This document shows positions 226 through 64,000 of a DNA stretch of 64,000 nucleotides, piece by piece (position 1 is the first letter of the stretch; every line of letters begins with the position of its first letter). Source of the stretch: Amoebophrya sp. A120 (Eukaryota > Protista > Dinoflagellata); contig CAJINV010000007.1 in NCBI GenBank assembly GCA_905178155.1, forward strand, positions 283,279 to 347,278. The letters are read 5' to 3'. The position numbers and the translations under genes were made by a program. Under the pieces are notes generated by a model that saw nothing but the letters and a program-made list of their open reading frames with translations, had not been told where the DNA came from and did not search any database.

Positions 226-3200
226 ATGGTCGTCAGCAAGTCATCGAACTTCACCGGGCGAAAAATGTCCATCATTTGCAAAAACGTCCCCGCCCCAGAC
301 TTGTCATGCAAACTGGCATGTCTAAAATGTTTCTCATGCGCAGCCCCATGATCATGAGAGCCATTTTCTATCTGGGAGTTTGTTTGTTATGCTGAAATCC
401 GGATGAGGTGATGCGTCTGCACTACCTCGAACAGAACTACACTACGGATCCAAATCTGTCATGCGAAACAGCCAAAAGTTGGCGATTTGTGTAGCAATAA
501 AGACACCATCTTGATTCTGGGGCCGGGCCGCCGTTTTTGCTCAGGATAATCTCCAGTAAATTGTCGGTGAAACGCACCGGAAACGACTGGTAATACGGAT
601 GGTACAAGAACTCCTCGAGGTTTATTTTTTTGCCAAAAACTGGTGTCTTTTCCGACACTTGCAACAGCTTGCTACGGTGGATGAACGGCTCTCCTTGTGC
701 CTTTTTACTGTCTCCCCCCACAACTTCCTCGTCGCTCGGCCACCCATACTTCGCATCTTTCGGGAGGAAGATCGGGGTGTCTTGCGTAACCACTTTCCAT
801 ATGGACTGCAAAAATGTCTGGGTCTGGAAATCACGCAAGTCGCGCTCGCGGACCACACTCATAGTCTGTAATGCAAACAGAAGCATCACAGATTTTTTGA
901 GACCTTCCGTATGCTTATTCCGCATGAGAAATTCGCCCTCTGCCTAGCGAGAATTGCGTAACTGTTGGCGTTCATGCAACACAGATTTTTTTGTGATCCG
1001 AAATCGCATGAAGACAGGCTTTATGTTTATTCTTCCAGACCCAGACATATTTGCAATGCATATTCCAGACGGTTTCGCTCATGGGAAACTGTCGGTCGCC
1101 CATTTGGACAAAAAGCTCGTTCGCCGCTGCTGGTGCTTCTTGTCCTCCCTTGATTGATTCTTTATCTTTCCCCCACCGGACCGGGATACTTTGCAAACCG
1201 TTCCTCCGTATCAAGAGCAAATATGTCTGGGTCTGGAGGAAACTTGTGATGCAAATCTACGAATTGTGCGCGCACTACAATACGCAGCCCAGCATGACAA
1301 GTATTTGCGCTGCTGTGTGTTTCGTTTTTCGCATGACAAACTAAATTTTTGCATGAAGGGGCCCTTTTCCTGCTCATGCATCACAGATTTCAGACTCATG
1401 CCAGGCAGGCATGACAAACTTGCATTTTTCCCGACCCAGACAAATTTGCATTTGATACTCCGCCGGTAATCCGACACTGCGTGAAAAAAGTCGACCACTT
1501 TTACCGCAAATTTTCTGCGTTCCAGCACCCAAGATGTTTCACCTTCTAGTGGGTTTAGTTCCTCTCCTCTTGCCCTTCGTCGCCGTCTTTCGTAACGGTG
1601 TCCTCTTTCTAATTCTTGGGTATCAGTACTTGCTAGAACGGTTTCAATTTCGATGGTGACCCGCAAGACAGCCTCGTGCCAGTGTATCCTGAGTAAAAAC
1701 GTACCCACACCAGAGTCAAGATGGGGACTTTGCAACACAAACCTAGGAGTTTTGGGAGTCACGCATGACAAGTTTCAGTCCGTAAGGTAGTGCAAGTTAG
1801 CAAGGAAAGCCGCATCACAAATCGACCTGCTGATCCTGTTCACAGCATCACAAATTCCAAAACACGATTGGAAATGGCTCTCATGGGGATGCGCATCACA
1901 AATGTCTTTGTCATTGCAAATCTGCATTACAACTCTGGGGTGGGTACGTTTTTACTCAGGATACAGTCCCTCATGAGTTCAGTCCCGGCGTCTTCCAGTT
2001 GCATATCGTAGGAAAAAAGTGTTACAGTTACACACTCTGATGGAAGACAAGCAAGACAGACAACCTCTGTGATGCTGGAAATGCTTGCCAGCCTCATGAT
2101 TATTTCATTCGCGTTTATTTCCATTAAAGCCTGCGCATCACAGGTTTTCTTTGCCATGCAGAGCAACTTTGTGATGCTGAAAGTCCAACAAATGTGTAAT
2201 TGTAACACTTTTTTCCTGTGATACTGTACCACCTTCACATACCGCGCAAAATTGGAATCAGCGGTAATAGTAAGCTGCGAAGTGCCTGGAACAACATCAA
2301 GACCTCCTCGCATCGTCGTGCCAACCGCCGGATGTATTCGTTCACAGGAACACGGGGATCCACTCGAGGGTAGAGGTTCTTGCAGCGGGTGTCCTCGACG
2401 AACTTGCTGACTCAGCATGTTGATGTTGCTGTCCCCTCCAGTGTATCAAATGCAAAAGTGTCTGGGTCTGGAAGGTTGCAAGACTTGTCATGCAGATTTT
2501 CCATGACCCGCAACGCCTGTAATGCATGCCGTACCATCACAGATTTTTAGACGGCTTACTGATGCCTACTCCGCATGAGAAACGCCCTCTCCGCGTAGCA
2601 CAAAGTGGACTCCTCTTGCTGGTCATGCAATACAGATTTCTTTAGAATCCAGAGATAGCATCACAAGTTGCAACCCTCCAGACCCGGACATTTTTGCAAT
2701 CCATACAGTGGACATCAGTGCGCCGCCGGCGCGGCTGGTCCTTGTGCAAGGCGGACAAACCAGCTTGTCCCACCAATGAAAAGGTATCAAATGCAAATAT
2801 GTCTGGGTCTGGATGAGTGCAGCTTTGTCATGCACGTTTTGCATGAGCCATAATGTCTGTGATGTATGCCCTAGCGTGACAGATTCTTAGCAGGCTACGA
2901 CCATCCTGATGCCTATTCCGCATGACAAATGCCCTCCCCACGTAGCACAAACTGGGCTCCTCTTGCTGGTCATGGTGCAATACAGATTTTTTTAGAATCC
3001 CAAGGCAGCCTCACAAGTTCCAACTTTCCAGACCCAGACACTTTTGCATTTGATAAAAGGTGCCGCGCAGCAGTTGCTACTCTCTCTGAAAGTCTCTTCC
3101 ACCTTCTTCTTTGAAAATCTCTGGCGCGATGAACCGAGGCCGCGCGAGGACTGGGCAGCAGTAGGCGCCAAAGCAGTACCAGTCTCCTCCATCCCGGCCC

Positions 3201-6200
3201 AGCTACGTGCGATATAACAGTGCACAACTCCCCCTCCCCCTCATTTGTATAGCATGAATGGCAACACAAACATCAGCAATAGTGCCGGTTTTGCATGACA
3301 AAATTTGCAACGGATTATAGTGCCATTTGGGCTACCAGAACTTGTCATGCAAACAGTGCCAAGAGGCAAAGGGTGGACTAGGTATTTTGCATGACAAATC
3401 GGGGGAGGTGGAGTTGTGCACTGTGATATGCGACATACCGCTCCCACGTGAGGTCGAACTTGTGTCGTAGAATATCCGAGGCTATCAAATGCAAAAATGT
3501 CTGGGTCTGGAAGAATGCAACTTGTGATGCTGCATTTGGATATCTAAAAAAATTGTGTTGCATGAGCAGCAAAAGGATTCTACTTTTTGTTACGCGGAGA
3601 GGGCATTTGTCACGCGGAATAGGCATTAGGAAGCCCTCAAAAAACCTGTGATGCTAGGTCATGCATTAGAGGCATCATCGATCATACAAAATATGCATGA
3701 CAAGTCTCAGAATCTTCCAGACCCAGACATTTTTGCATTTGATAGAGGCAGCCGCGTTTCGGAATTCATGCCACTGCACTTCCCGGCAGTTGCTGTGCAA
3801 CGAAGGTTCTAGTAGTTTCTGCGGCATCTTGGGGACACAGGGGTGCGGCAGCGATCCGTAGCTGAAACTCAGAATCGTTTTCAAGTTGTAGGCGACCAGG
3901 GGGCTACCATATTGCTTTCGCAGGCCGTGTAAAAGAATGGAATATTGCAGCGGCGGGTACAAATCGAAATCTTTATGCAGAGGGTTAGTACGAGCATGAT
4001 CTTCTGGCAGTCGCTCGAGCAGAATCGGCGGGGGCGCCACGGACACAGCCTCGTATGGCGTCGAAATTGCCTCGAAAGCTATGGATTACAAATATGTCTG
4101 GGTCTGGAATTTTGTATAATGCTAAAAGTGAATGGTAGACGCATTGCAATATTACGCAGCTATGCATGACAAATTTTTTTGGCTGCCATGTCTTACGTAT
4201 TCCGCATGGCAAACTGCGTTTTTGCACGACAGGTAAGAGGGCCTTTTCGTGCCTATGCAACACAGATTCATCTCGAGAAGTCATGCCAGACAAGCATGAC
4301 AAACTTGCATTCTTCCAGACCCAGACATTTTTGCATTTGATAAAAACCTGCCTGAACCGATCTTCCGGGGGAGCTTTTGGTGTCTTCTCGCCAATAAAGT
4401 AATACTCTGGGCCATCTTGCCCACCCGGCACGTCTTGCTTTTTCTGCTCGTCCTTTTTCTGCTCGTCCAGTGCGTTTCGAGCGCACTCTTGCACGTCAGC
4501 TACAAATTTTCGATAGTCCTGACTGGCATGCTATTGAGAGGAAAAATCCCCCCTCCCCATATCGAAAAGGCATGTTTCCGAAAATTTGTGTTGCGTATTT
4601 GAGGTCACAAATCACGTCTGTCTTGCAAGAAGACAAGGGCAAAAGCTTCGCCCCCATTATGGAGGCGATTTGTCATGCTGTTGGGCCTAAAGCGGAGCCG
4701 TTTGCCATGCTGAACAACTAGACCGATACGCCCCTGCATAGCCTGTGGATCTGGCCGCGATGCCTTCCTGCAATACAAAGCCGATTTGTGTACACAAATC
4801 CCGCATCACAGATTTCCATTTCGATATGGGGAGGGGGGATTTTTCCCTTTGATACATGCAGCGTCATGACCGCGTGGCTCCACACGACAGAGTCTACTGG
4901 GCGGACCGGCCCTTCTTGTCTTCCACCGTATGCAAGAAAAAAACTGTGTGAGTGTAAATTTGTGTTGCAGAACATGCAACAGAGTTACACCTGTCATGCA
5001 AGACAGCCATGAAGCTCTCTTTTCATGTGTGTTTTGCCTTACAAGCCACGCATGACAGGTTTTCTCTGTCGTGTAGAGCAAATCTGTGATGCTGTTCCTC
5101 AAAGAAAATTACACTTACACACTTTTTTTTCTGGATACACCGATGAGTTCTTGTACTATTTGCGCAGCCGCTTCAGGCTGGAACTCTGTCACCACGTCCA
5201 GAAAGGTCATGCCGAAGGTCCGCGGCGCAGAAGACCTCGCGTACAAAAATTTCTCCACCTGCTCTTTTACTGCCTCGAGCTCGCTCGAGCTGACCTTTGG
5301 TTGCTTGGTGAGCTGGGGTAAGGACTCGTGCTTCAATTCGTCAACCACCAACGCCCGGGCCCGCAAAACCATTTCCAGTATGGGACGCAGCACGGGCTCA
5401 AACAAGTGCTCAAACATTGCCGCGCGGTGCAAAACCGTTTCGCCCAGAGGCGAAACCGAATAGGTGAGGACTATTTCCAGAAACGGCGCTAGATCTATCC
5501 TGAGGAAAAACGTACCCACACCAGAGTTGTAATGCAGATTTGAAAAGACAGGAAGACTTGTAATGCGCATCCCCATGAGGGCCATTTCCAATCGTGTTTT
5601 GGAATTTGTGATGCTGTGAACAGGATGAGCAGATGAATCTGTGATGCGGCTGCACTTGCTAACCTGCACTACACTGCATAGTGCAACTTGTCATGCGTGA
5701 CTCACAAAACTCCTAGGTTTGTGTTGCAAGATCCTCACCCTGACTCTGGTGTGGGTACGTTTTTACTCAGGATAAGATCTTGCAGTTGTTCCAACACTGT
5801 TCGCTGCCGGCGGGGAGAGGAGCCGCCAGCTGCATCTTGTTTTTTTTCTTCTTGCGGGACACCAATGGCAAACAAAAACTGGGTCAGCCACACCGCCCGC
5901 GCGTCCAGCGAAATTCGCTCAAATTCGCTTGGGTTCTGCAGCTGCTCGTAGCTCATCTTCTTTCGCACCGATGCAGCTGCAATCGCCCGCTCCATTTCCG
6001 TATCAACTGCAATTGTGTGTCTGGGTGTAGAAGAATGCCAGACTTGTCGTGCAGGTTTTCCATGACCCATGAGGTCTGGCATGTAAGACATAGCATGACA
6101 GATTCTGTGAGAGTTCTATCTATCATGCCTATCCTGCATGAAAAACCGCCTCTCGATTGGCTCAAAGAAAAGTGGACAGCTTTTGGTAATCATGCAACAC

Positions 6201-9200
6201 AGTAGATTCTTTACATGATTCAGATTTAGCATGACAAGTTGCTTTGCTCCAGGCCCAGATATTTTTGCATTTGATATTCCGCCTCCGCGTGGCCGAGCGC
6301 CCGCATGAAAACGGTCTCACCCTCCACGTTATCGTGAAGAAAAATCCCTCCTCCACATACTCACAATGGAAATTTGTGCTGCTGATTTGTGACCACGAAT
6401 CAGCTCTGTCTTGCATATGAGGCAAATGGGAGCCGTGTGGCGCATTCCACAGCCAAGCTGTCGTGCGCTTCTGCCTAATGCAAAGCGGTTTGTCATGCCT
6501 GCGGAATTGCCTGAGTGCTAGCCTTTTGCATATTTTTACCTGATCAGGCTTAGAAAATGGAATGCCTACAAGCTCGCTTGTTGCAATACAGCTCTGTGTA
6601 CAGAAATCCAGCAACAGAAATTTCCGTTTCAATATAATGGGGAGGTGGCTTTTTTCAACTTGATACACGTCCCGGGCCTGGAACAGTTCGTAAAGAATCA
6701 TATCGCTCTATGAATGTGCACAACCCCACCCCCTCGTCCCTCTCGTTTGTCATGCAAAATCCCAAATCCAGTCGCTGCCTTGTGGCACTGTTTGCATCAC
6801 AAATTTATTTATCGGGAAGCCCGAATAGAAATAGTTGTATTTTTACACATAGGCACATAAATTTGTTATGCATATGCACAGGCTCCATGCGTGCTGGCGT
6901 GGTCATGTGTATGGCTCTTCATGCCAACCTACAAATGAGGGGGAGGGGACGAAGTTGTGCACTCTCGTACCGTCACCATTCTGTCGTTTCCGATGTTTTT
7001 CGTGGAGAAGAAGGCCAAGCTCAAATGGAATCGCAACAGATCTTGATTGCCGCTCGCCTGCGCTGCTACGTGCAGCGGCGACCGTCTCAGCAGGTCTTTT
7101 GGCGCAAAAAACAGCTGCCATACGGCCGGGAAGGACCCAGCCTGTATCCTGTGTAAAAACGTACCCCAGAGTTGTCATGCAAATGCGCAATGACAGGAAG
7201 ATTTGTAATGCGCACTTCCATGAGAGGCATTTCCAGTCGTGTTTTGGAATTTGTAATGCTGTAAACAGGACGAGAAAATGGCTTTGTCATGCGGCTTTCC
7301 TTGCCAGCCAGTACTACACTGCAGATGGAAACTTGTCATGCAGAACCTCTAAAACTTGGGGATTTGTGTTGCAGACTTCCCATCTTGACTATGGTGTGGG
7401 GACGTTTTTACATAGGATAGCCTCCGGATTTTCGCTTTCCCTTTCTCGCTTCTCAAGTGCGGTTTTCAGCAGTTCCAATTCTGCGATGTGGCCTATCAAA
7501 AGGAAAAATGCCCCCTCCCCGTATCAAAACGGAAATTTGTGTTGCTGATTTGCGACCACAAATCATGTTGTCATGCTGGAGGGCAAAGGATGCGGACTGT
7601 AGTGCTGGCTGGCGTTGGAAAGCCTTGCATCTTCAGCATGACAGGAGGCAACTGGAAGAGGGAAACAGCATAACAAATTGCCTACAATTCAGGCGACAGT
7701 TGCGTCTTTTGCCTTTCTAGCAATACAAGTCGATTTGTGTACGCAAGTCCAGCATCACAAATGTCCTCTTCGATATGGGGAGGGGGGGTTTTTCCTCGCA
7801 ATATGGCCGAAGGGCGCGTCCTTGTGAAGTTTTTGCGTGCCCTCCGCACGCAGAAACCGAATTTGGTCCGCAAGCAGCGCCGAGCCTTCCCAGTCTTTTT
7901 CCTTGTCGTCTAACACTATCTTCAGCTTCGAAAAAAAGACCCCGGCCATCTGCAGGGTACTAGTCCGCTCCCCGGCCCCGGAATAGAGAAGATGAAAATT
8001 GCTCCGGCCTGCATTGTATCAAATGTAAAAATGTCTGGGTCTGGAAAAGTGGAACCTGTAAGTATTGCGTGGTTTGGATCTCTGTAAAATCTGTTTTGCA
8101 TGACCAGGAAAAGGAGCCTTCTTTTGTCATGCAAAAGCGCAGTTTCTCATGCGCACTACGCATGAGGAAGTGTCCGAAAAATTTGTCATGCTTGGTCGCA
8201 CTCAGGAGCATGTTCAATCATCGCCACCCAGCATCACAAGTTTCCAGCAGACCCAGACATTTTTGCAGGTGATACATTGTCTGCCCCCCGAAGCCAAAGA
8301 CGCGGAAACGTGCTTGCAATCGACCACTTGGGCTCCTGTGTTTCATCTTCCCGCCACACGTAATCTTTTTTCACTGCGTCCCATTCGAACATCCTATCAA
8401 ATGCAAAAGTGTCTGGGTCTGGAAAACTGCCAGACTTGTCATGCAGGTTTTCCATGACCCATGAGGTCTGGTCTGTAGGACAGAGCATGACAAATTCTGT
8501 GCGATCTCTCTCATGCCTATCCTGCATGAGAAACTCCCTCCCGACTTGGTCAAAACTGGACGACTTTTGGTAATCCGACAACACAGATTTTTGCATGTTT
8601 CAGATTTAGCATGACAAGTGTCACTCTTCCAGACCCAGACATAGTTGCAGTCCATACATCCCCTCGCGTGGCAATTGAATCTTTCCGAGCAATTTTTCCA
8701 TGAAGATGACATCCCGCTCCTTGCCCTATCACACAGAAAAAAGCTGGCAGGGCATATCTGTCATGACAAGTACTCGGAACAGCTTACATATCACAAGTAG
8801 ACGCGCATCTTGTGCAACTTGTGCGCCGTTTGTGATTTCAGGTCTTTTCGAAAACCGCTTTCTTCTTCCTCGCCTTGAGCGCTAGCCGAAGCCCAGTTGT
8901 TCGTCCTTTCTGCGCCCATATATGTGCGGCGAATGCGAAGCCTGTTCCTGTAAGAAGCTCAAAGCCAAGTCCATTCGTTTTACTTTCTAAAATTTGCGCC
9001 TTCTTTCTCTTATGAATATGTGTATTTATTTTTGCATTACAAATACCAGCCATGCCCCGGCTGACGCCGGGGCGCAAGGCTGTTGGGGCGGGGCAGGACT
9101 ATTTGCGGATCGGGCCACAGCGACAGGGCTTTACGGACAGCGTGACAGATCGAAGGAAGTTTCGGCGCCGGTTTGCGCCATGTCAACCCGCAGGGCCTCC

Positions 9201-12200
9201 TGCGCGCTTCCCGCGCCTTCAGGCGCTATGCGCAGAGAGCAGCTGCAGCGAAGCTTGAGGGCGAAGAGAAGCCGCCTCGGCATCGGTGCCGAAGCAGAAC
9301 TCGGACCGCGCTGCCCTTTGTTGATCACACACACGCCCGCCCCCGCCCAACTGGCTTCCCGGCGGAAGCTGTTGGCGCGAGCGGTTAGCGCGAGAGGGTC
9401 CGCGAGAGGGTGCGCGAGAGGGTGCGCGGGGGGGTAGCGCGAGAGGTGTGGGCCTACACCGTGAAACAGTCCCACCAAAATCGGCCTCGTGCTGGGCGGA
9501 TTCGGTTCTTTTTTACCCCCTCGCAGGCCCTCTTTTTGGCCTCTCCCAAGGGGTGTGGCTAATAATCCGGCTATACTCGCCGGTAGAGGTCTACAGAGGT
9601 GGCCGAGAGGTGGCCCAGAGAGTGCGCGAGGGGTTCGCCCTTATTCGCGCAACCTCTCGGCACCTCTGTCCCCCTCTCGCTTACCCTCTCCCGGCCCTAT
9701 CGGCCACCTCCGTCCCCCATAGGCGCGGCTTTAGGGCGACCGGTTCGGCTGGCTATACTCGCGCCACCTCTCGGCCACCCTCCCGAATGACCTCCCGCGC
9801 CACCTTTCCACCTCTGTGGACCTCTTTTTGACCTCTTTTCACGTCTTTTTGACCTCTCGGCCACCTCTCTTCTATCCTCTGTAGACCTCTTTTTTCGCAT
9901 GAATATAATAGATAGTGATGCCCTCCCAGCTTTTTTCTCTGGGATATGCCCATCCGGATGCGCATGCCACTGAAGGTTTCCGCTGTCTCCACCGAAGTGC
10001 TCGACCAGAGCTGCATCACCACCCACGAAACAAACAGGTCCTGTGCGGCTATCGTACCGGAGATCCGGTAATTTAATCCCAGCCTAGCTTTAAAAGCATC
10101 GATGTGCTTTTCCGAGACTTTGGCATCGCAGTAGGTGTAGAGGTGCCAGAGGAGGAAAGGCGAATCCACCTCCTGAGGGGAAGATGAAGAAGGGGTTGTG
10201 GACGACCACGCAGCAGCTCCTTGTCCTGAGGCACTACCACCTCTTCTACCTTGAGCAGCCAAATCCGCTTTGGTACTTCTGCTCATCCGGTCGTTCGTTG
10301 CCAGGTCAAGAAGACCAGCCGGGCCCCGTCCCGGCCCGGCGGTGAGAAGCCCCGAGCGACGGCGCACCTCGTCCAAGTGTGGCTGGGGAGGATGGCCTGC
10401 CGCTTTAGTAGAGTCGTGGTAAAATTTTTCGGTGTATGGATTGCAAATATAATGTCTGGGTCTGGAAGAATTCATGTTTGTCGTGCTTGTCTGGCATGAC
10501 TCTAAAATCTGTCATGCACGTTGCCCAAGAGCTCCGTTTTTCTGTGATGCAGAAGCGCAGTTTGTCATGCAGAATAGGCAACACCTAGGAGCTCAGAAAC
10601 TTGTGATGCTGTGCCAGCATTTGTAGCCTCCTCATGAGACGCCACCCAGCATCACAAGTTTCCAGACCCAGACATTTTTACTTTTGATACGGTGAGATCG
10701 CCGAGTCTGCGCTCCGTCCCGTAATACATCTCCGATACCAGATACCCAAGGGCCAGCGCGTTTCTGAACCCGTTTGCATTCCCAATAATCGCGTCTGCCC
10801 TGGAGCTATCAAAGAACGCACATATGTCTGGGTCCGGAAGTATGCAGATTTTTCTCATGCTATGTTTCCATGACCCAGATCCAGCAGGTCTGGCATGCCG
10901 GGCATAGCATATACAGGTTTTGAGAAGTAGGTGGAGCGCCGATGCCTATATACACATGACAAATTGCCTATTTTGCGGTTGACAAGGATTGGCAATCTTT
11001 GCTGTCTGTGCTTTTTTGTGTCTTGTGAAATGCGCATTACGAGTTCCACCTTTCCAGACCCAGACTATGTTGCACTTGATAGGAGCTCACTGCGATCAAA
11101 ATCGTGTGCAAAAACTGCGGGTACCGCGTCCCTTGTGCCGACTCCAGCGAATCCAGGGCGTAGAAGACTCGCCGCGCCGGACACGCCGAGACGTCGCTTT
11201 TTGCGTCCTCGCATGACCCGAATGATCCATCGCCCCTTGTTGGCAACGATCTGCGATGATGAACCAGAAATTGCTGCTGCAGTTGCAGATCTGGTAATTC
11301 CTTTTCTTTCATCAGAGGTCCAGTCTGAACCCCCGCGCCAACCTGGTTCGCCGTCTGATGCGTGAACCTGGATACTGAGCGGCTACTCAGAAATTTCGCG
11401 TAGTCGATCTCCATCTGTAGGAGCCGGAACATGAGGCTTGCGATATCAAAATGAAAAATCCCCCCACCCCATACTCAAACTAGAAACTTGTGACGCAGAT
11501 TTGTGATCACAAATCAGCTCTGTCATGCTAGAAGGAAAGACATGCGGAGCGTAGTGCTGGCTGGAGTGGGAAAGCCTTGCGCCTTCAGCATGACAGAGAG
11601 CAACTGGAAGTGGGAAACAGCATGACAAATTGCCTGCACCCGAGGCCACAACTGCGGCTCTTGGCCTTCCAGCATTACAAGTCGATTTGTGTACACAAAT
11701 CCAGCATCAAAAATTTCGTTTTGATATGGGGTGTGGGCTTTTTTCATTTTCATATGCGAGATGCTTCCAATTCTGGAGGATTCTTTTCGTGGTCACCAAC
11801 TGGCGTTGGCTAGCAGGATTTCCAACATTTTGCTGCAAAAACGATCCGCCCCCAAACAGCAAGGTCTCCGCATCGCGCACTTTGATCCATTTCTATAAAA
11901 GTGCACAACTCCCCCTCCCCCTCAGCTGTCATGCAAAATACCCAATCCTCTCTTTGCCTCTTGGCATTGTTTGCATGACAAGTTCTGGCAGCCCAAATAG
12001 CACTACACTCCAGTGCAAATTTGTCATGCAAAACCAGCATTCTTGCTGATGCTTGTATTGCCATTCATGCTATACTCAAATGAGGGGGAGGGGGAGAGGG
12101 AGTTGTCCACTGTCATAATTTCAGGATGGGATCCAGAAACGATTTGTGCTGCGTATCAACTGCAAACGTATCGCACTCGTATAAATGCATTGCAAATTTC

Positions 12201-17440: not shown

Positions 17441-17608
17441 TTAGCTGCCCTCCTGCGCCGCTAGCCTGGCGGCCTCGCGGTTTTGCCGCGCCTTCTCACG
17501 GCCCGCCGCTAGCCGTGCGAGGTTGGCCGCCTTCTTTGCGGCTTTCTCCTCCTGCTTCTTCTTCTTAGCCGCAAGCATCTTCTCGATGTGCTCGCGGGAA
17601 ATTGGCAT
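17441..17608 (-). CDS. Small basic Lys/Ala/Arg-rich helical protein, 55 aa (MPISREHIEKMLAAKKKKQEEKAAKKAANLARLAAGREKARQNREAARLAAQEGS)
   Basis: ATG preceded by AAAA. GC-rich, coding-like codon usage contrasts with the AT-rich surroundings. No family recognised. Confidence 0.5.
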   Translation of the reverse strand: MPISREHIEKMLAAKKKKQEEKAAKKAANLARLAAGREKARQNREAARLAAQEGS

Positions 17609-34709: not shown

Positions 34710-34908
34710 TGCATCTCGATGCACGACCCTGTGCAGCAACTTAGAACTAGACTACCTGCGCTAGAGGATTTCTTCTTCAAAGAAACTTTTTGTTTTTGGA
34801 TAAACTTCTTCAGCCTGCCAAAAGTGTCGCTTGGAGGTTGTGACACAGGAGGTCGCCGGTGTTGATTTGTAGTATGTATAGCAATAGGAATAGCTACTAC
34901 TACGTGTA

Positions 34909-35161
34909 TATCAAGTGTAAAAATGTCTGGGTCTGGAATATTGCGAGATTTGTCATGCTTGTCTGGCATGACAAAAAAGTTTGTGATGCGTGTCCAAGAA
35001 GAGACCCTTTTTCCTGTCATGCAAAAACGCAGTTTCTCATGCGAAAAACGCAACACAAAGAAGCGCAGATATTTCTCATGCTTGGCTGTGCATTACAGAG
35101 CATTCACCACTCCCAACACAGCATTACAAGTTTCCAGACCCAGACATTTTTACATTTGATA
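34909..35161. mobile_element. Introner family A outside CDS (probable 3' UTR)
   Basis: DR GTGTA. Confidence 0.9.
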
Positions 35162-35354
35162 GTGTAGTGAGTAAAATACTAAATCGGTCTTCAGCACAAC
35201 GTAAAAATGCTGTAATGCTAAGTTGTACGCAACTGCTGAAGTACCGAAGCAACCCTGGTTCGGCTGCTGTTGCTCGCGGTGTGCTGGTCGCTAGAATGTT
35301 GAGTCACGACTCAACTTACTCTACTCTACTACCAAAAACTCAACTTACCTACAA

Positions 35355-49536: not shown

Positions 49537-50679
49537 TCATAAAGTAGAACTATAGAACTTTTACTCGGATTCTTCGCCCTTATAGATTATAGGGGCGCCC
49601 TTAGAAAATGAATTCTAGAAAAAAGGGCATCTAGAAACTTCCCCTAAGGGAGCTCCTAGGGGACGCCTCTAAGGGAACGCACTAAAGAAACAAAACGACT
49701 GGAAAGGCGGGGGCCAAAAGTCATGCGGCACAAAATAAACAAAACCCAGCGCGCGGAGTGGCCCGCGGGCCTCGCCCCATGGCCTGAAGAAATCGGAAAA
49801 AAAAAGCCGGGCCAGTTTTTAGCAGGCCTATTCTGGCTGCCCCCAAGCCCCGGCCGCGTTTGGGGGGGGGTAGGCGGGGGCGATAACCAGTGGCAAAACA
49901 AGATGGGGACGGTGGCGCCCGGATATCTGGGGATATATCTGGGGATATATCTGGGGATATATCTGGGGATATATCTGGGGATATATCTGGGGAGATATCT
50001 GGGGATATATCTGGGGAGGTATCTGGGGAGGTATCTGGGGAGGTATCTGGGGAGGTATCTGGGGAGGTATCTGGGGATATATCTGGGGATATATCTGGGG
50101 ATGTATCTGGGGATGTATCTGGGGATGTATCTGGGGATGTATCTGGGGATGTATCTGGGGATGTATCTGGGGATATGTCTGGGGATATATCCGGGGACAT
50201 ATCTTAGTTAGTAGGAGGGGGGGCCGTTCTAGGAGCGAGTTAGTTTTTTTTGGAAGAGGCCCCAGCAGGCGAGCTACTTGGGAATGATTGAAGGGGCCGG
50301 CGAAACGGCAGGGGAGGCGCTGCGGGTGGTCCTGCCTAGAAATGAGACAGCCCACAAGAGGGCAATCAGGGCAAGGCTCGCGGCCGGGTGAGGGCGAGCT
50401 AGAAGCTGAGCTCAGGGAACGAAAGCGGGCGCGCCCCCTAATGTGGGCCGCTACTAGGGCAGGGCGTTACTAGCAAGCGCGTGCCCGGTTTGCCATGCTA
50501 AAACCGCCCGCCGGGTTTCTAGTAGTGGCCGCGTTTGCGCTAGGTAGCAAATTCCCAATGGTAAGAGTCTTACGACTAGCCTGCGCCCCCACGCTCGCCA
50601 AGTTTTTTCCTTGGTGTTTGCATTTAGACTTACTAGACGACCTATCGCCGGCGTCCTGGACGCCGGCGTAGTAGTCTAG
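49537..50679 (+). mobile_element. Putative non-autonomous Helitron-like element (5' end tentative)
   Basis: Perfect hairpin CGCCGGCGTC-CTG-GACGCCGGCG (50646-50668), 7 nt, then CTAG|T; candidate A|TC start at 49537; internal 12-bp minisatellite. Confidence 0.55.
49921..50204. repeat. 12-bp tandem repeat (GGGGATATATCT and variants), ~23 units
   Basis: Direct reading; variant blocks GGGGAGGTATCT and GGGGATGTATCT. Confidence 0.95.
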
Positions 50680-53800: not shown

Positions 53801-56800
53801 GTACTTCTTGACGGACATGATATCGAACGACCAAGGACCGACCACCTAGGGGACAAACTGAGACCCCGCAGTCTCTTCGAAAGGCTATTGACGGCCTCGT
53901 CGTCGACGGGTGCGCCGCTGGCACCACAATTTTCAGGACCACCAATATTCGCCGTTGTATCACCATGAGTCTCATGATCTACTTGTTCTTCTATCTGCAT
54001 TCTACTAGTTGCACAGCCACTACAGTGATGATTTGTGCCTTGCTCTACTACTCCTTCCATAGCGCCAGTAGCATCGGGACGAGCACTACTAGTAGTACTA
54101 TTGACAAGGCCATGTTGGCCATGCTGCTGCATTTCATTTTGATGTCCTGCTCGGCTGTCTTCACTGCTAAATAAACAATCTCCTGCACGGCCATACGATT
54201 CTTGTTTTCGATCTTCCGCCGTTTCGACATATATTTCCGGCTCCATGACGCGCAACAATCGGGTGTAGCTGAGATTCTCTCCCTGCTTTTCTTGCGGCTC
54301 ACCGTTCATTTCCGTTTCCACCAGCCCCGACCCCTTTCCAGGCTGCAGGGTGAGCCCGGCAACGATAGGGGAAGCGGCCTTGATTTCCATCGCCGGGAAA
54401 GTGCCAAGCGTCTCCAGCATGGCAAACCCGAGACCAAGCAAAACCGGGCGGCGGGTAAGAGAGGACAAAGGCTGTTCTTCACCTCCTGCTCCGGCGGTTT
54501 CGAAAACCTATTGGCAATACAAGAAGCAAGTATAGATCGATAAGATGGAGCATTGCAGACCATGTCTTCGTGTCGTGAGGCATGCTGATAAAAACAAAAA
54601 TGTTGAGAAAACTTGTACATGTTTGAGTAAAAGTACTATCACAAACGAAACACCACCTCGACCGTTTTGAAGATTTCTAGCTGCGCATAATACTATACAT
54701 AGGTACCTGAATCGGCTCGGTGAGTTGGTAGATGCCCGGCGTGAAGACGATGTCTTTCTTCTCCACATTTAACTTGTGATTGATCACCTTCGCAACCTGT
54801 TCCATCTCTGGCCGGGCAACAAAAATGTTTGAAAAGGGCCGGGTCTCTTCCGCACGGAGGATGGTTTCAGCTGCAGCAGGAGCAGTACCTTGCTGGTGAT
54901 GTTCTTCAGCATTTATTTCCTCTCGGTAGGTCAAAGCGGGGACTCTCAAGTAGTACCCACTGGATAGTACACGACGACGGCGGTGCAGATGGGAGTCCGA
55001 GCAGTCCTCGTCGCTGCCGGAGTTCTGCTTCTTCGCCGATGAACATTCTCCTTCGCGTGGTTCATCGTGGTCGTTCCCACTTTCGTAAAAAATGTACGGC
55101 TTCGACTGGAAAACGAACCCGTGGTTTTTGCTATTGGGTGAAGATTTTTTTGCAGTAGTAGCGGTGGACGCAACTGTCCTCGTCGACAAAAGTACCTGCG
55201 TGACGGCTGCGTTGGGGTTCACTTTGTCCAACGGGCCTCCGCGGTGGGATGATGCACTTCTTTTCATCTTCTCGGTAGAAGAGGAATCCCGATCCTCTCC
55301 AAACCCGAAGTCACACTGCAGCCCGACGAAGCTCCAAGCACCGCCACTGGCCCCTTTTTCCGCTTTGGTGTTCACAAACAGGAACTGCTGTTGGCTGCCC
55401 AGCGCTAGCTATGCATTGCAAATTGTATGTCTTGATCTCTGGAAGGTTTGTCACGATTGTCTTGCATGCAGTTGACATCTGAAGGGTTTGTAATACGTGA
55501 TGTCGTGTCCAGGAAGAAAAGACCCTTATTTTGCCAGGCGTGCAGTAGCATGCAGAGAACGCATGACAACATAAATAGCGCAAATATTTCTCTATGCTTT
55601 GCGGCGCAACATAAAAGTAGCTACACGGCATTCACTATTCACATCCCAGCATTTTTAGTACAAGTTTCCAGACATTCAGAGAAGATATTTGCGAATGATA
55701 CCAGCTATCCTGTGCAAAAGTATCGTACTCGTATCAATGCTAATGCAAGTCTTGCATTACAAACCTTGTTCTCAAGGAAGATTAGCATTACAAATTTTCT
55801 TTCTCATGCTAAGGAAATTATTTGTAATGCATTTATACGAGTACGATACTTTTGCAGTGCATACCAGCTCCCCCCTCACCAAAACGTCTGCCATGAAGCC
55901 ACCGCTGGTGTTTCCGTAGTATTGCAAGGAAAAATCCCCCCTCCCCATACTGAAAAGGTATATTTTTGGAAATTTGCGATGCTGATTTGTGGCCACGAAT
56001 CGGGTCTATCTTGCAAGAAAGCAAAGCCAGAGCCTTCGCCGCTTTACGCCGGCGATTTGTAATGCTGCTGCGCTGACAGGGCAGACGTCTGCCATGCTGA
56101 GCGCCCGCCTCTAGCCAGCCCCTTCCAGGCTTTGCATCTGCCTGCAGTCCTCTACTGCAAGACAAAGCTGATTTGTGTACGCAAATCCCGCAACACAGAT
56201 TGTCACTTTGATACGGAGAGGTGGGATTTTTCCTTTTGATACGTAGTCAGGGGTATTCATCTTGAGATGCAGGGATTGCAGGGAGCGGGTCGGTGGTGGA
56301 TCCTGGTCTTTTCCATCTTCACTGTGATCAAAGAACAAGCGCTGCTTGTTCTTTTCTTTTTCTACTGCTTGTCGTTGTTCTTGTCCTTCTTCAGCTTCGT
56401 CGTCTTCGTCGGAAGTACTGTCATCACAGTACCCCGGAACATCTTTCACGGGGCCATACATGAAACCCTTGAAGGGGTCCGCCTTCCCGCACATGTCCTG
56501 AAACATCATCAAGCGAAAGTCTCCATCAACAATTAACCTCCGAAACGGGCTTGCCTGCGAGACCGCGGCGTTAACCGCCCCGAGAATCCGCATGTTTTCC
56601 ACGGACCGCCAGAAGTTGCAGGTGCCGCCGGGCCCGAAGGTGAACTCGCTGGCGTTCGGGATTTGCAGATGCTGAATTTTTATCCTATGCAAAAGCATCG
56701 TACTCGTATTGCAACCATGCATCACAGATCTTTCTCTTAAGGTAAATCCGCATTTTCTCATGCTGAGAAATTTTGTAATGCATTTATACGAGTACGATTA

Positions 56801-59586
56801 TACTTTTGCAATGCATAATTTTCACTTGATCAGCCGTCTCCCCAAGCCCGTAGTACGCTTGATAGTACCCCGGAGTGATGGAAATGTCTCTATAATTTCC
56901 CGGTTTGAACAACACTTGCACCCGCGACTGGTCCGATCGGTCAAACTCGCGACCCGGGTACGTGGGGATCTCGGTGTCCCGGAAGTTGTTCACAGATATC
57001 CTGTTTGGTTCGTCGCGCTTCAAATTGTCGAAAAGCTGCTCGTATGAACTGCAAAAGTATCGTACTCGTATAAATGCATTACAAATTTCCTCAGCATGTA
57101 ATGCTGATTTGCTTTCACAAAAAAAATTTGTGATGCAAGACTTGCATTTATACGAGTACGATACTTTTGCACAGGATAGCTCGCTCAATCTATTCGCCTT
57201 GTGCGGGATCCTCGCGAACTGACGGCCCTTATAAAAAGGAAAGATGCCCCCCCATATCGAAAACGAAATTTGTGATGCTGGACTTCCGCACAGTCTTGCA
57301 GTAGAGGACTGCAGGCCCATATCATGCCAATGTCGAGCGGCTTTGGCCTAGGCCCTTAGCATGAGGAACGCGAACGTCTATGCTGTAGGACCGACAACAT
57401 TACCAACCGCCTGCATAATGGGGCGGAGCCCATGTCGTTGCTTTCTAACAAGACAAACACGATTTGTGGCCACATATCAGCATCACAAATTCGCTGAGGC
57501 GTTCCTTTTCCATACGGGGAGGTGGGATTTTTCCTGACGATAGTCCTGGCTGGGACGCTCACGGTTGCTCAGGATAGAGGATTTCTGCAGGCATTTGGGG
57601 TAGAACTTCTCCCCTCCAGTGGATACACTGCTGCGTGAACACCGACGACCGGATGAATCTTTATGTTTACCATCATCTAATATCTCGTCGCTAATATTTC
57701 TATCCGCGGGGGCTTGCTCTTGACGGTCTTTTCCACCAGAACAAGGTCTTGTTTCTAATACTGTAGAAGAAGCTCTACTTCTGCATTTCTGTTCCATCTC
57801 CTTCAGCAGCAATAGCCCCTTTTCCGGGCACGACCCCCGTTCCAGTGCGTAACCCAGAGAGTCCTGTCCGCCCCAAATGTTTCGCTCGATGTTCGTTTCG
57901 AAATTCCAGGGAAACCAAGGCTGGTCCTTTGGGTAATTCGGCCGGGGCTTTCCTTCAGAGAAGATGTTATCCAAGACTGTCTGCAGATTTTTCGTTTCCG
58001 CATCATTCTTCGGCGGCTCGATAACAACAACGTGGTGGCCCCAGTCCGGGTGCATAGGCTCCACCTCGTCGCAGTTGTTGTATAATTGTGCGTAAGAAAA
58101 ACGTGTGTGTCCCCTTCCACTCCGAGACTTCTTGCTATGCATACTTATTTGCATGCCCAGATTGTTGTAAGTATCTCATGCGCAGTTGGAGCCTGATGTT
58201 AAGCAGCAGTTTCTTATGCTGTCTGGAACTTTTTGGTGATCCTCTAATCAGCAAAAAGAGCCACTTAGATTTGTGATGCCTCTGCACTAGCCAACCATCG
58301 GACATCAATCCTAGAGACACAAACTTGTCAGGAGGCCAGATATTACTTACCCAATAAACCTTGTTGGTTTGTGTTGCAAAATTCCTATGCTCACTCTGGG
58401 CTGGGGACCACGTCGCTACTTTTGCTCAGGATATTATGTCTTGTCCTTGTCTATTTTCCTCTTCTGCCACAAAGAACTTGGACAACATCCGGACGTCTTG
58501 ATGCGCATTACCAACAAGGAGATCATGATCTACTTCATGTTCGTCATCATCTGGCACACCTGCAGAAGTAGATCCCGTCTTCAAAACAGCCGCCGAAACT
58601 ACTGGTGCGCCGGCACTTGTTTTTCCGGACCACAACGGGAAATAAGAACCACAAAAAAGTTCCGCCGTAAAGAATATGCATTGCAAAAATGTCTGGGTCT
58701 GGAAAAATGTAGGACTTGTTATGCTTGTCTGGCATGCCTCTTGGATCTACTGTGATGCGTAAGCAGGAACGGGGCCTCTTGCCTGTCATGCAAAAACGCA
58801 GTTTGCCATGCAGAAAACGAAACACATGGCAGTGCAAAAACTTGTCATGCTTGGCTGCATATTTTAGTGCGCCCACCATTCAGAGATTTGCATCACAAAT
58901 TTCCAGACCCAGACATTTTTGCATTTGATAAAGAACAGCTGCAGTGCTGTTCCCGCCGCAAAGGAAATCATCGTCCTGAAGACCGCAGACCGAGCTATAT
59001 CAAGGTGAAAAAAAATTCCCCCTCCCCATATTAAAATCGAAATCTGTGATGCGGGACTTGTGTACACAGCTCGAGTCTGTCTTGCAGTAGAGGACTGCGC
59101 GCAGATCCGAGGCCTAGGCTGGGGCCTTTTGCTGTAGGCGCCTCGCATGACAGACATCTTCCTTATAGGCCTTACCGCATTACAAATCGCCTGCATAGCG
59201 TGCCGGACTGTCTGCACTTGCCTTCATGCAAGACAGACAGCATTCGTGGTCACAAATTTGCATGGCAAATCTTCAAGAAGGATGCACTTTCGATATGGGG
59301 AACGAAATTTTTCCGCACAATAAGCTAGTCCGGACGAAGGTAGTTCGCGATGGAAAGAGCATGTGTCTTCCCCAGCAGCACGACGAGCGGAAAACTTCCA
59401 ACGTGGAGAATCTTCACGAGCGGAGGTGCGACGTCGACTTTCGGTGCTACGCAAATGGAGGCTGGTGAATATTTTCCTCTTATTTTTTCCAACCAGGAGG
59501 ACACTGCGAGAAGGCGAATTTGTTTCCGAAAACTGTTGTGTCTGTCCTGGGACAAAATTTTTTTGCTGGCTAAAAATAAACGACAT
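50864..59586 (-). CDS. Multi-exon gene (15 introner introns + 1 canonical intron): bacterial-type GH55 exo-beta-1,3-glucanase (laminarinase)
   Basis: Spliced motifs appear in the order known from Streptomyces-type GH55: VLFKPGNY, GYYQAYYGLGE, NFWRSVEN, AVSQASPFRR, TSGGFMAD, GSQQQF, FTPGIY, VLLGLGFA, LQDIVIRVGG, WGWRADH, AYGLAVEH, VFYQCELPYD, HKLFGAGVY. The start codon (59586) and last exon are less certain. Confidence 0.85.
51043..51303. mobile_element. Introner family A
   Basis: DR ATCAA/ATCGG. Confidence 0.85.
51384..51635. mobile_element. Introner family A with a deletion inside the right TIR
   Basis: DR GACTA/GACAA; GACCCAGAC missing from right TIR. Confidence 0.85.
52029..52352. mobile_element. 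Introner family C, degenerate
   Basis: DR ATGTC/CTGTC. Confidence 0.85.
52413..52722. mobile_element. Introner family B, degenerate
   Basis: DR ACTCC/ACTCG. Confidence 0.8.
52884..53036. mobile_element. Introner family F, degenerate
   Basis: DR CTAGG/CAACG; frame restored. Confidence 0.8.
53114..53387. mobile_element. Introner family A
   Basis: DR CACCC/CACCA; right end CCTA. Confidence 0.8.
54508..54706 (-). other. Canonical GT-AG spliceosomal intron (199 bp) in the GH55 gene
   Basis: Minus strand CAG|GTACCT...TTGTATTGCCAATAG|GTT. Joins FTPGIYQLTEPIQ to VFETAG...VLLGLGFA in frame. No TIR. Confidence 0.8.
55410..55700. mobile_element. Introner family A, degenerate (stacked against the next element)
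   Basis: DR CTAGC/CCAGC. Confidence 0.8.
55706..55863. mobile_element. Introner family F (stacked)
   Basis: DR CCAGC, shared with the neighbouring element. Confidence 0.9.
55920..56241. mobile_element. Introner family C
   Basis: DR CGTAG. Confidence 0.9.
56681..56817. mobile_element. Introner family F
   Basis: DR ATTTT. Confidence 0.9.
57043..57178. mobile_element. Introner family F
   Basis: DR GCTCG. Confidence 0.9.
57230..57542. mobile_element. Introner family C
   Basis: DR GCCCT/GTCCT. Confidence 0.85.
58081..58433. mobile_element. Introner family B, highly degenerate
   Basis: TATA...CTCAGGATA; DR TGTTG/TTATG; frame restored. Confidence 0.65.
58675..58930. mobile_element. Introner family A
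   Basis: DR AAGAA. Confidence 0.9.
58998..59322. mobile_element. Introner family C
   Basis: DR AGCTA. Confidence 0.9.
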
Positions 59587-60210: not shown

Positions 60211-60506
60211 TATCCTACGTAAAAACGCCCCCCACCGACCCCATCGTTGTCATGCTAATCTGCATGCATTGCATGTTTCTCATGCGGAGCCCCGTGACAA
60301 AAATGCTCTAGTAGTGTTTTGGAATAATTTGCGTTGCTCCAATCAGCGCAATATGCTAGGTCTGTGATGCTCCTGAACTAGCTCAACAGGATTACATTAC
60401 GGGACCAAACGTGTCATGCGCAATAACCGACTCTGGTTGATTTGTCTACCAGATTTGCCATCTTGACTCTCGGGTGGTCGTGGGGACGCTTTTGCTCAGG
60501 ATCATA
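60211..60506. mobile_element. Introner family B, degenerate, outside recognised CDS
   Basis: B-type TIR remnants; DR AAGAA/CAGAA. Confidence 0.7.
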
Positions 60507-61208
60507 CAGAAAGCTAGTAAACCATCACCACCATCTTCATGACACAACCCGGAGAGATCTCTCCAAGGTTCTTCGGGCGGGTCCTACCCAAAGAGTAAGG
60601 AGGTAGTGTCGCGACACGAGGTCGTTGTATTTTTAGTTTATCGAAATGTCGCTCGGATGGTGCTGACCTTTAGTTATAGATACTCGTTGATCATGATCTC
60701 TACAAAAATTGAAATTCCCAGACCACACTGACTGGAAACTCTTTTTTATACTGTGCCTGAAGAAAAAAATCGGTAGCAGAGCGGCGGAGGTAAATTGGTA
60801 TCGATATCGATATGCACTACATCATACAGTAAAATAATCTCATCGACCACTTCTATCTTTCTAAGGGTGCAGAAAACAGGATCGATTTGGCAGTTCACTT
60901 AAAGTGTGAAGATTCTCGTTCTTCCATTCTGCCCATCTCGGGAGATGATCATGAGCCGGATAATCAATTGCTATTGCACGGCACCAGCCTTGCCTTGGCT
61001 GCATTACTGGATCCTAGTACATCGTGATCTATGAAAACAGATACTTAGTACTCGACCGCTAGCTGGACTTCAGCTTTATGGAGATCTTCTACGAGTACTT
61101 CTACTGCTAGCACATCACGACTGCTCGATCTCGATCAAAAGCGTGCAGTTCTTGCAAGTTGATCTCCAGCCTCTGCCATGATCAAGATAACGCTTCGGAG
61201 CTTTCGGC

Positions 61209-61625
61209 TTGTCCCAGGTTTGTCCCACCTCTGTCTCAGGTTTGTCCAGTCCCACCCCTGGCTCAGGTGCGTCCCAGGTTTGTCCCACCTCTGTCCCAGG
61301 TTTGTCCCACCTCTGTCCCAGGTTTGTCCTCCCACCCCTGTCCCACCTCTGTCCCAGGTTTGTCCCACCTCTGCCTCAGGTTTGTCCCACCTCTGTCCCA
61401 GGTTTGTCCCACCTCTGTCACAGGTTTGTCCCCCTTCTGGCACACCCCTGTCACAGGTTTGTCCCACCCCTGTCCCAGGTTTGTTCCACCTCTGTCAAAG
61501 GTTTGCCACACCTCTGTCCCAGGTTTGTCCCACCCCTGTCCCAGGTTTGTCCCACCCCTGTCCCAGGTCTGTCCCAGGTTTGTCCCCGGTCTGTCCCAGG
61601 TCTGCCCAAAGTTTGTCCCAGATTT
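61209..61625. repeat. ~22-bp minisatellite (TGTCCCAGGTTTGTCCCACCTC; 11-bp sub-period)
   Basis: Direct reading. Confidence 0.95.
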
Positions 61626-62408
61626 GACCACGACGGACTACGAAAGCACTTAAAGCACACACGCGACTACGATCCGCAAGTACGATATACTAGGACCTTC
61701 ACACTGTCTGCTATCGGTATTTATAGTGGAATCTTGTTGTACTTGTACAACTACAACCGACATCCATATTTATTCGCGGCACACACACACACGTAGGAAG
61801 TTCTACACTTTGTCTTTCGCGGCACACATGATGATGAGCATGCGTAGTAATTTCGAACACCAGCTCGAGGTCAGGTGTTCGCGGGAAAGTTTTTTTCCAC
61901 TTCATGGAGGATTTTCCCGATAGTTTGATGTTGTCCGAATGGATTATGTTTGTGCTTACGTGAAAAATCGTACAGATGGATCATCAACACAATCTCGAGG
62001 ATGATCGTCGTGGAGCTTTTGTTCAATACTTACGTCTACATGCTTCTAGAAAAATTATACATGGTTCTGGTGCTGACGAGTCCGTTTTGGTGGAGAGAGA
62101 CGAGAGGAGCACGTGGATTTTTAAAATCATGGCTGTATGCACTGTGATTATATCTCTTTTTTTTTTTCAATTTGATGAATAAAATATAGCCAGGCGCATC
62201 AAGAGGCTCGCCACTCCCTGGCCCAACGTGTGGCCCGACGTGAAATCCAGGAGAGCACATCACGCGATTGTTGCCTTCTGTAAGACTGCCGGCAGTCTTC
62301 TACCTGCATCTTCTGCTACTTATCTATCATCTTCTGAGTACTTCACGCCAACGCTTTCGACATCGCAAAATACAATAAGTAACGCCATGAGATAATTGCT
62401 GTCAAAGT

Positions 62409-62487
62409 ACTTCCTTCTTTCAAAACTACTTCTTCCTTCAAAACTACTTCTTCCTTCAAAACTACTTCTTCCTTCAAAACTACTTCT
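62409..62487. repeat. 18-bp tandem repeat (CTTCCTTCAAAACTACTT) x4
   Basis: Direct reading. Confidence 0.9.
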
Positions 62488-62822: not shown

Positions 62823-63859
62823 CTACCCAACTGATGATCTACCCAACTGAGGTGATGATGATGATCTACCCAACTGAGGTGGAAGCTGTGGTCTTCTTGG
62901 CTCTGATCGACGGACGTATTCCTGCGCCACAGACAGCTTCTGGTCCACCAAACGAAGCTTCTGCATCCACATCGGATGAAATTCCGATTCGGTAAGCAGC
63001 TCCGGGACCAAACCCTGAATCCGCCCTTTATTGCTGAGCAACTCGTCCTTTAGCTGAAGAAGCTGCCGCTGCGCAAAAAGAAGCACCAGCCGCAGCCGCC
63101 CAGCCGCAGCCGCAGAAGCGCCAGCCGCAAACTGTTCGGCCGTCGGCCGCATGACGAGAAGCAGCCCCGCATGGTTTACACCGACTCCACGAGCTCCAGG
63201 ACGGAGCTTCGACTCCACCAGGAGAAGCGTCTGATTATGAGAGAGAAGCTCGGGAATAACGTCGGGCCAGGAAGACGGATCCAAAAGACCACGGCGACGA
63301 ACGTCCCACTGCTTCCGAAAAAGCTCCGACCATAGCTCAAGGAGGTCTGCCCGAGTGTCGGTCAGCCCCTCGCTCTCCGAAAAAAATATCCTGCGTAAAA
63401 GCGTCCCCGTTCCAGAGTCAATAATACATGGGCTTTTTGCTACACCAACCAGCCTTTTTTGGGTGTCGCGCATGACAAGCTTGGACTCGCAGTGTCGTAA
63501 GTACTAGTTGTGCTGGTGAGCTATTGTATCTGCATCAGAAATCGATCCACTACTCATCCTGATTCTAGCACGACAAAAACTGCCAGGCAGCATTAGAGAA
63601 TGCTGCTCCTGGGGCGGCGCGTGAGAACAAGTATTGCAGATTTTCAGGAAGACACGTCTGGCGTGAAGAAGCTTTTACACAGGATAACGTACCTTTCAAA
63701 GTCCGAAAACGAAAATAGTGGAAATTCAAGACCTCCCGATTCATTCTTCGCCAATTCGTCTAGATATTCAACGACCTCTCGACTAGATGAGCAGCGAGAG
63801 CGAGCCTCTGATTCGACCTGTGTAAGGGTAAGATTTTGCTCCCGCCCGAGTAGCCGTTT
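62823..63859 (-). CDS. 3' end (last two exons in window) of a hypothetical protein gene continuing beyond the window
   Basis: Exon 63687-63859 (KRLLGREQ...DFERY) joins in frame to exon 62823-63386 (SESEGLTD...GRSSVG*) across a degenerate family-B element. Confidence 0.6.
63387..63686. mobile_element. Introner family B, degenerate
   Basis: TATCCTG...CAGGATA; DR decayed (AAAAA/ACGTA) but frame restored. Confidence 0.75.
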
Positions 63860-64000
63860 TATTACAATGAAAAATGTCCCCACCCCCGAACTTGAAAGCA
63901 TTTGTATTGCAAACCTTTCCAAATGAAACATTCGCCCTCTTGCATGTATCAGCATCACAGATTTCCGATCGTGAATAGCAAAAATTTGTATTGCAAAAGA
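63860..64000. mobile_element. Introner family H (right end off-window)
   Basis: Reverse-complement match to the right half of 43058-43361. Confidence 0.85.

Follow-up and report, generated by a model that had tools for sequence, protein, structure and literature searches.

A helically phased DNA word shared by introner families of Amoebophrya sp. A120

We identified a 14-bp DNA word that is repeated through the interiors of short inverted-repeat elements, known as introners, in a 64,000-nucleotide stretch of the dinoflagellate Amoebophrya sp. A120 (contig CAJINV010000007.1, positions 283,279 to 347,278; hereafter the window). Tens of thousands of introns in A120 derive from these elements (PMC7789003; published work is cited throughout for the sections covered). 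The word is enriched in the elements and conserved within them, its copies are spaced at a helical period of 10.4 bp and phased to the element ends, and elements with few or no exact copies are removed exactly from RNA. We put at about 55% the probability that this lattice provides the sites for one sequence-specific protein of the transposition complex, which could be a shared integrase-like transposase or a host helper. The broader proposition, that the lattice consists of protein-binding sites in DNA, is highly probable.

Elements and the shared word

The window is a compact eukaryotic gene region with minus-strand genes, the orientation scored for 83 of 86 element flanks. About 90 short elements, totalling 25,406 bp, are spread across it. 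They are 136–353 bp long, start with TAT and end with ATA, and carry terminal inverted repeats (TIRs) of roughly 30 bp and a 5-bp target-site duplication (TSD). The set comprises 82 candidates less one, 50068-50213, dropped as a tandem repeat, plus five decayed and four cut or long copies added by eye. A metagenome scan yielded 345 further copies in 154 loci that share one assembly prefix, and the resulting 431 copies form 14 families of at least three members as well as small clusters. Of 429 copies, 337 have a duplication of exactly 5 bp and none has one of 6–9 bp, as expected of one type of DDE enzyme; neither the 8-bp duplication of hAT elements nor the 6-bp duplication of IS3EU and GingerRoot occurs among the 429. 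No target-site preference was detected. In their small size, TIRs, fixed TSD and high copy number the elements are miniature inverted-repeat transposable elements (MITEs). They also have the features of A120-type introners, namely a direct repeat at the exon border (here the 5-bp duplication), removal from mRNA without canonical splice sites, and an inverted repeat of TAT, seven variable bases and a run of A; in families H, J and M, TCA replaces the A run. Summed contig depth in run X1, which is not a copy number, reaches up to ~200,000 for elements against ~45–90 for unique DNA.

An earlier note on this DNA described an octamer, TGTNWTGC, as repeated through every family in both orientations and rare elsewhere, and both statements are borne out. 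There are 351 matches in the window (185 on the plus and 166 on the minus strand), and 341 of these lie inside elements (13.4/kb), compared with a mean of 15.5 and a maximum of 23 in 100 dinucleotide shuffles. The remaining 38,594 bp hold 10, which is the chance level (shuffle mean 9.8), and a canonical GT-AG intron of 205 nt taken as a control (17138-17342) has no exact site. The examples quoted in the note contain four (3483-3744), three (24673-24843), five (41364-41682) and six (43058-43361) sites, and GCATGAC is present in the interiors of all 14 family consensuses. The octamer is real but too short. The full word is AAAYY-TGTVWTGC-W, with position 4 of the octamer seldom T, and variants beginning TCT or TGC occupy lattice positions. 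It occurs 3–7 times within an element in both orientations, several conserved short repeats inside the TIRs being the arrangement of hAT- and Emigrant-type subterminal repeats. An exact site pair is missing in 148 of 431 elements, and 90 have sites in one orientation only. The claim that the motif persists in badly decayed copies holds weakly, as 46041-46306 and 63387-63686 retain one exact site each. The first 14 bases of A-type TIRs (e.g. 3483-3496) are similar to the motif apart from two additional bases and an A in place of a G, and the terminus of these elements may itself be a variant site.

Conservation

Conservation was counted in 389 copies from 11 families, the other 42 of the 431 elements being singletons or members of clusters with fewer than six copies. 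At the core positions T1, T6, G7 and C8, 365 of 9,165 bases (4.0%) depart from the family consensus, compared with 10,119 of 41,093 (24.6%) for other interior columns and 1,241 of 15,482 (8.0%) for the inner TIR. The N position of the octamer is free, with 29% mismatch. Between disjoint pairs of nearest copies, core differences amount to 0.29–0.49 of the context-matched expectation, the ratio climbing from 0.29 to 0.49 as pairs get closer; without the A families, which served as search seed, it is 0.22. The earlier note had proposed a strand-symmetric cis code that would fall if motif columns were no more conserved than their neighbours. They are about six times more conserved, and the motif is under selection.

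Helical phasing

For 73 sites in the 14 family consensuses, tested against 300 nulls, the best spacing period is 10.4 bp (Z 8.6, compared with a null maximum of 3.5 ± 0.8; 0 of 300 nulls reach it). Sites in the same orientation lie whole turns apart, with clusters at 31–33, 49–53, 71–75, 80–84 and 92–95 bp, while sites in opposite orientation are offset by half a turn, with clusters at 15–17, 34–35, 45–50, 58–59, 66–70 and 98–99 bp. The period is retained after removal of the dominant same-orientation pairs at 29–35 bp (Z 6.8; 0 of 300) and with one family per homology group (Z 4.7–5.6). Raw copies in the window, taken without alignment, give a phase at 10.4 bp of -4 degrees when the two sites share an orientation (238 pairs) and of 178 degrees when they do not (141 pairs), and raw copies outside it give 1 degree (864 pairs) and 178 degrees (625 pairs). 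This geometry places a point near G7, 2.6 bp from the centre of the octamer, on one face of B-DNA in all sites, whichever way they are oriented.

The lattice is also phased to the element ends (arm-shift null, p 0.007 for 33 sites and 0.018 for 65 sites). Inward sites begin 33–34, 41–45 or 54–56 bp from the end, and between homologous families this distance shifts by about one turn: 34/44/54 in F/J/M, 45/56 in C2/C and 34/43 in A2/A1. Phased and oriented sites are the pattern expected of sites for a protein on double-stranded DNA, which supports the protein-binding branch of the earlier proposal.

Removal from RNA

All 13 element joints in an RNA-type contig, from a run presumed to be RNA, skip the element length plus 5 bp. 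In raw RNA reads the A2 copy 34909-35161 is skipped with one TSD copy kept (1,345 reads), as is the B copy 35691-35970 (1,041 reads). Read coverage came from run X13 over ~34800-40040; for 8300-23100, X14 gave 2 reads and X15 gave 0. Exact sites are not required for removal, although relaxed or one-mismatch sites are still present in the copies concerned. A decayed A1 copy with no exact site and two relaxed ones (10807-11081) is removed exactly (skip 280 = 275 + 5), as are the decayed A-type copy 46041-46306 in an RNA-type contig and a 1,220-bp copy (8727-9946; skip 1,225), each with one exact site. The copy 12394-12695 is removed as element plus 5 bp despite a decayed target duplication, so the cut sites seem to be set by distance from the element ends, not by the repeat. 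A rough prediction gave 102 GT-AG introns in the loci, of which 87 are without an exact site and just two carry a pair at 30–34 bp; site density is 1.02/kb in predicted canonical introns and 0.23/kb in coding DNA.

Element lengths modulo three are flat (156/134/141), and selection for frame on intron length was rejected. Despite this, indels between close copies in all families are of 3 bp in 101 of 244 cases and of 6 bp in 24, mostly not tandem duplications, an excess that we regard as an unexplained mutational bias.

A model for the lattice

The protein, its binding to the sites and the bending of DNA are steps that we infer. Such a protein would coat and bend the 110–350 bp element, bringing its TAT and ATA ends together in register, so that lineages losing sites or spacing would stop spreading. 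The family-specific inner TIR would then serve as a self-complementary stem and the shared lattice as what the mobilising protein reads. With this division of labour one enzyme could move families with unrelated TIRs. A weaker benefit to the host might slow the decay of sites after insertion.

Decay after insertion was followed by pairwise, rare-allele and private-indel measures, in which profile alignment may flatter conserved columns. Core mismatch is 1.8% in copies with no private indels and 9.3% in copies with at least seven, which indicates that the sites decay once inserted; over the same range TIR mismatch rises from 1.7 to 12.3% and that of other invariant columns from 3.1 to 20.9%.

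Several results weigh against this model. The decay of sites is slower than that of the background, with a rise of 7.5 points in the core compared with 10.6 in the TIR and 17.8 in other invariant columns, and of 6.1 compared with 8.5–8.9 points for novel alleles. Copies with one TSD mismatch show no rise in core mismatch (4.1% compared with 4.0%); TSD mismatch was a poor clock of copy age. The runner-up spacing period of 16.3 bp has a Z of 6.9 (4.8 without the main pairs), and the families are related, so that their spacings are not fully independent. Pfam detects no transposase domain in 24 open reading frames (ORFs) of the window, which have no match at all, or in 134 of the 315 locus ORFs (of at least 170 aa), no kilobase-sized coding element is present in the window or the loci, and Farhat 2021 reported no transposase in A120 in the sections covered (PMC7789003). 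Finally, when the 14 families are masked in 456 kb, 9 of 21 close same-orientation pairs lie 31–34 bp apart (~0.7 expected if uniform), mostly in intron-like DNA without TIRs, where a purely transposon-level role does not predict them. A scan of viral contigs with the TIR and lattice patterns found nothing, and a scan of prokaryote genomes for the site pair gave at least 121 scattered matches in unrelated genomes, which we read as chance.

Alternative explanations

The slower decay and the relic pairs leave room for a role in the host. As the main alternative, a host DNA-binding factor might take the lattice as a mark of intron DNA in chromatin, aiding co-transcriptional removal or transcription through the insert, and elements would carry the lattice because marked inserts are tolerated. 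The masked sequence keeps 145 sites compared with 95 expected (TGTCATGC, 39 compared with 10.8), several relic pairs parse as predicted GT-AG introns of 106–174 nt without TIRs, and very indel-rich copies can retain their cores, with 1 of 34 core positions changed at L031:5522-5822 compared with 8 of 16 other invariant positions. The higher site density of predicted canonical introns than of coding DNA points the same way, as does the report that U1 snRNA was not detected in Amoebophrya (PMC7789003). However, most predicted canonical introns are siteless, a third of elements lack an exact pair, copies with 0–1 exact sites and the 1.2-kb copy are removed exactly, and window DNA outside elements is at chance. 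Moreover, the relic pairs were all found by motif search; some fall in unrecognised TIR families, and one looks like chance. We therefore regard a host factor of this kind as possible but somewhat unlikely. Exact pairs at a distance of 31–33 bp occur at L029:3383, L071:2397, L031:5947, L059:6817, L062:4652 and L032:11837, in AT-rich, intron-like sequence where no TIR can be recognised, and such relics are possibly introners aged into canonical introns. A bolder version, which we find distinctly unlikely, is that a host protein reads a helically phased code in double-stranded DNA and marks introns in chromatin for removal, in place of the missing U1 small nuclear ribonucleoprotein, that introners took over the genome because they carried this code, and that selection keeps the 31–33 bp pair as an introner ages.

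The remaining alternatives dispense with a protein that reads the bases of DNA. In a bending or wrapping signal (for nucleosomes or for positioning of the dinoflagellate/viral nucleoprotein type) there would be no base-specific reader, and the 10.4-bp period and the TG steps five bases apart in the word are compatible with this. Outside the sites, G/C dinucleotides are in phase with G7 (z 4.5) and AA/TT out of phase (z -3.7), but these may be decayed sites, and T1, T6, G7 and C8, held at 95–97%, fit base-specific readout better than bendability, which makes such a signal improbable. The earlier note had also offered RNA folding or intron definition, in which the motif would form paired stems or a protein site defining the intron on either strand. 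Folds of single copies pair motif bases more often (0.75 compared with 0.62), 111 of 329 sites pair with another site, and one A1 hairpin shows a C-G/G-C exchange. The exchange tracks a subfamily split, however, and covariation at N exceeds z 2 in only 1 of 42 opposite-orientation pairs, while same-orientation pairs reach 6.9 by descent alone. The consensus-fold covariation term is +0.22; compensatory pairing is absent, and outside the TIR stem the fold gains no covariation support. Motif mismatch does not differ between the two transcript strands (102/2,956 and 105/3,011), the sites of family B all point one way and single-orientation elements are common, the 10.4-bp period has no RNA rationale, and there is no Rfam match. 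Lacking strand bias and compensatory covariation, and with exact removal at 0–1 exact sites and so many predicted canonical introns without a site, an action in RNA is very unlikely. The last alternative is ancestry only, with the motif a leftover of one repeat-rich ancestor of all families. The interiors had been described as otherwise unalignable, and this is not so throughout. Homology extends beyond the motif in 11 of 91 family pairs at Z>4 (F/J/M, C/C2/H, A1/A2, B/D and B/F), and with interiors partly homologous across TIR types the families look like one reshuffled superfamily. Ancestry alone leaves the conservation of the core within families unexplained, context matching included, as well as a spacing that keeps phase across rearranged families, and we consider it extremely unlikely as a full account. 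Sites for a protein of the transposition complex are our preferred reading of the lattice.

Families and other features of the window

Family A1 is represented by 3483-3744 (~262 bp), with sites at 3523>, 3554>, 3647> and 3695<. Its other copies are 800-1062, 2444-2705, 2785-3055, 6001-6276, 8395-8656, 10807-11081, 13051-13319, 14225-14486, 22436-22703, 22778-23039, 23322-23595, 25646-25907, 26097-26354, 39393-39666, 41740-42008, 42154-42419, 46966-47230, 51043-51303 and 51384-51635. Family A2 has the TIR of A1; the type copy, 34909-35161 (~252 bp), holds seven exact sites, and further copies lie at 1209-1457, 4080-4342, 8017-8274, 10435-10689, 38980-39233, 40336-40600, 43422-43686, 47282-47533, 53114-53387, 55410-55700 and 58675-58930. 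The type copy of family B, 44179-44457 (~279 bp), has six consensus sites, all in one orientation. Other B copies are 270-548, 1685-1963, 5496-5774, 7145-7419, 12394-12695, 13725-14015, 20753-21031, 24949-25234, 35691-35970, 36546-36826, 39826-40103, 42708-42986, 52413-52722, 58081-58433, 60211-60506 and 63387-63686.

The C and C2 families (310–346 bp; type copy 13358-13683) also occupy 4532-4854, 6330-6665, 7494-7803, 11444-11754, 14726-15053, 20279-20603, 40672-41000, 43820-44139, 46575-46920, 52029-52352, 55920-56241, 57230-57542 and 58998-59322. Family D (~209–220 bp) has its type copy at 47618-47831 and others at 2004-2223, 4929-5137, 12760-13015, 36263-36478 and 41061-41270, and family E (~149 bp) has its type copy at 55706-55863 and others at 12154-12305, 25405-25553, 37318-37466, 40143-40290, 52884-53036, 56681-56817 and 57043-57178. 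Copies of family F (type 23949-24164, ~216 bp) lie at 3213-3428, 6709-6967, 11894-12117 and 44507-44730, and another, from 1 to ~221, is cut by the window start. Family G is represented by 24673-24843 (171 bp) and family H (~308–319 bp) by 41364-41682, which has its own TIR and a left interior homologous to family C. Family I (43058-43361, ~305 bp) has a second copy from 63860 that runs past the window end. Further TIR elements that belong to none of the 14 families occur at L059:6211-6575, L064:384-594 and L057:2009-2335, the last without the motif and without a 5-bp duplication.

All seven long copies examined contain a secondary insert with its break in or beside a motif site (8727-9946, 21108-22315, L024:505-1608, L030:632-1465, L032:6299-6755, L061:571-1051 and L062:3862-4492). 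The first has G-type TIRs and an insert of ~870 bp beside its site. The second, an E copy of 1,208 bp that is skipped in an RNA-type contig, carries an insert that ends in poly(T) and has duplicated a motif site. Tails of (ATG)n/(CAT)n or poly(T) and duplications of 8–16 bp occur in several of the inserts; as a group the inserts look like non-long-terminal-repeat retro-inserts for which the ATG core provided microhomology or a nick site. One GC-rich insert of ~870 bp follows a motif site in two different host families, at 9041-9906 and L024:775-1568, the two versions being 90% identical over 550 bp. A GC-rich block at 32342-34701 has an internal 173-bp repeat and a flanking 58-bp direct repeat (95% identical), with no Pfam match in three ORFs tested. 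Tandem arrays lie in intergenic DNA at 49920-50200 and 61206-61629 (units of ~12–13 and ~22 bp).

Comparison with known systems

The introner system itself is already known; the shared internal word and its helical spacing are new here and are a variant, within that system, of transposon subterminal repeats. A single shared, phased DNA word is a ready bait for finding the mobilising protein. It also suggests why many inverted-repeat 'families' behave as one system, and it assigns separate jobs to the TIR stem and the interior. Should the reader turn out to be a host protein acting after insertion, the word would represent a DNA-level way of marking introns.

The repeats of hAT elements are tied to one family, and hAT elements make an 8-bp TSD. 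Unlike the repeats of hAT elements and Emigrant, the word described here is common to at least 14 families whose inner TIRs are unrelated, and its copies fill the whole element. It is otherwise like the short internal repeats of Hermes (hAT) and like the subterminal motifs of the Emigrant MITE, bound by Lemi1 (PMC1636448); for such repeats, binding by the transposase on top of the TIR has been proposed or shown. The repeats of hAT elements vary in spacing and orientation (PMC6188088), whereas the present word keeps strict phase.

In their ends, direct repeats and non-canonical removal the elements are like the A120 introners of Farhat 2021 (PMC7789003) and Gozashti 2025 (PMC12130899), the former describing inverted repeats of TAT, seven variable bases and an A run together with short direct repeats and non-canonical removal. 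Published A120 family lengths of 149, 208–214, 252–261, 278, 305 and 317–322 bp match those of the window families (PMC12130899; 40 of 58 A120 rows). Unlike the present analysis, both studies classify by inverted repeat only and leave the mobilising enzyme open; an internal motif common to families or a helical spacing is not described in the sections of either that were covered. Our literature search found no description of this motif or its phasing, though subscription papers and figures may hold one.

Among DDE-type candidates, A120 family 38 has a 5-bp TSD, TA/TA ends and integrase-like homology (PMC12130899), and TDD-4/5 (Ginger2/TDD) also make 5-bp TSDs (PMC2836005). Ginger1 and Ginger2 end in TGT, unlike the elements here (PMC2836005). 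IS3EU and GingerRoot share the TA..TA ends but usually have a 6-bp TSD, and IS481EU shares TNT..AYA ends but has TSDs of ~4, 15 or 25 bp (PMC10045372). In the sections covered, the combination of TAT..ATA ends and a 5-bp TSD is found in none of Ginger, IS3EU and IS481EU (PMC2836005, PMC10045372).

The closest working model, by analogy, is IS1535 of the IS607 family, in which a cooperative filament of transposase is nucleated by short, helically phased motifs located 20–60 bp in from the end (PMC6188088). IS1535 is prokaryotic, uses a serine transposase, has neither TIR nor TSD, and carries direct repeats at 10–11 bp (PMC6188088), whereas the Amoebophrya elements have TIRs, a 5-bp TSD, sites in both orientations and a dominant spacing of 31–33 bp.

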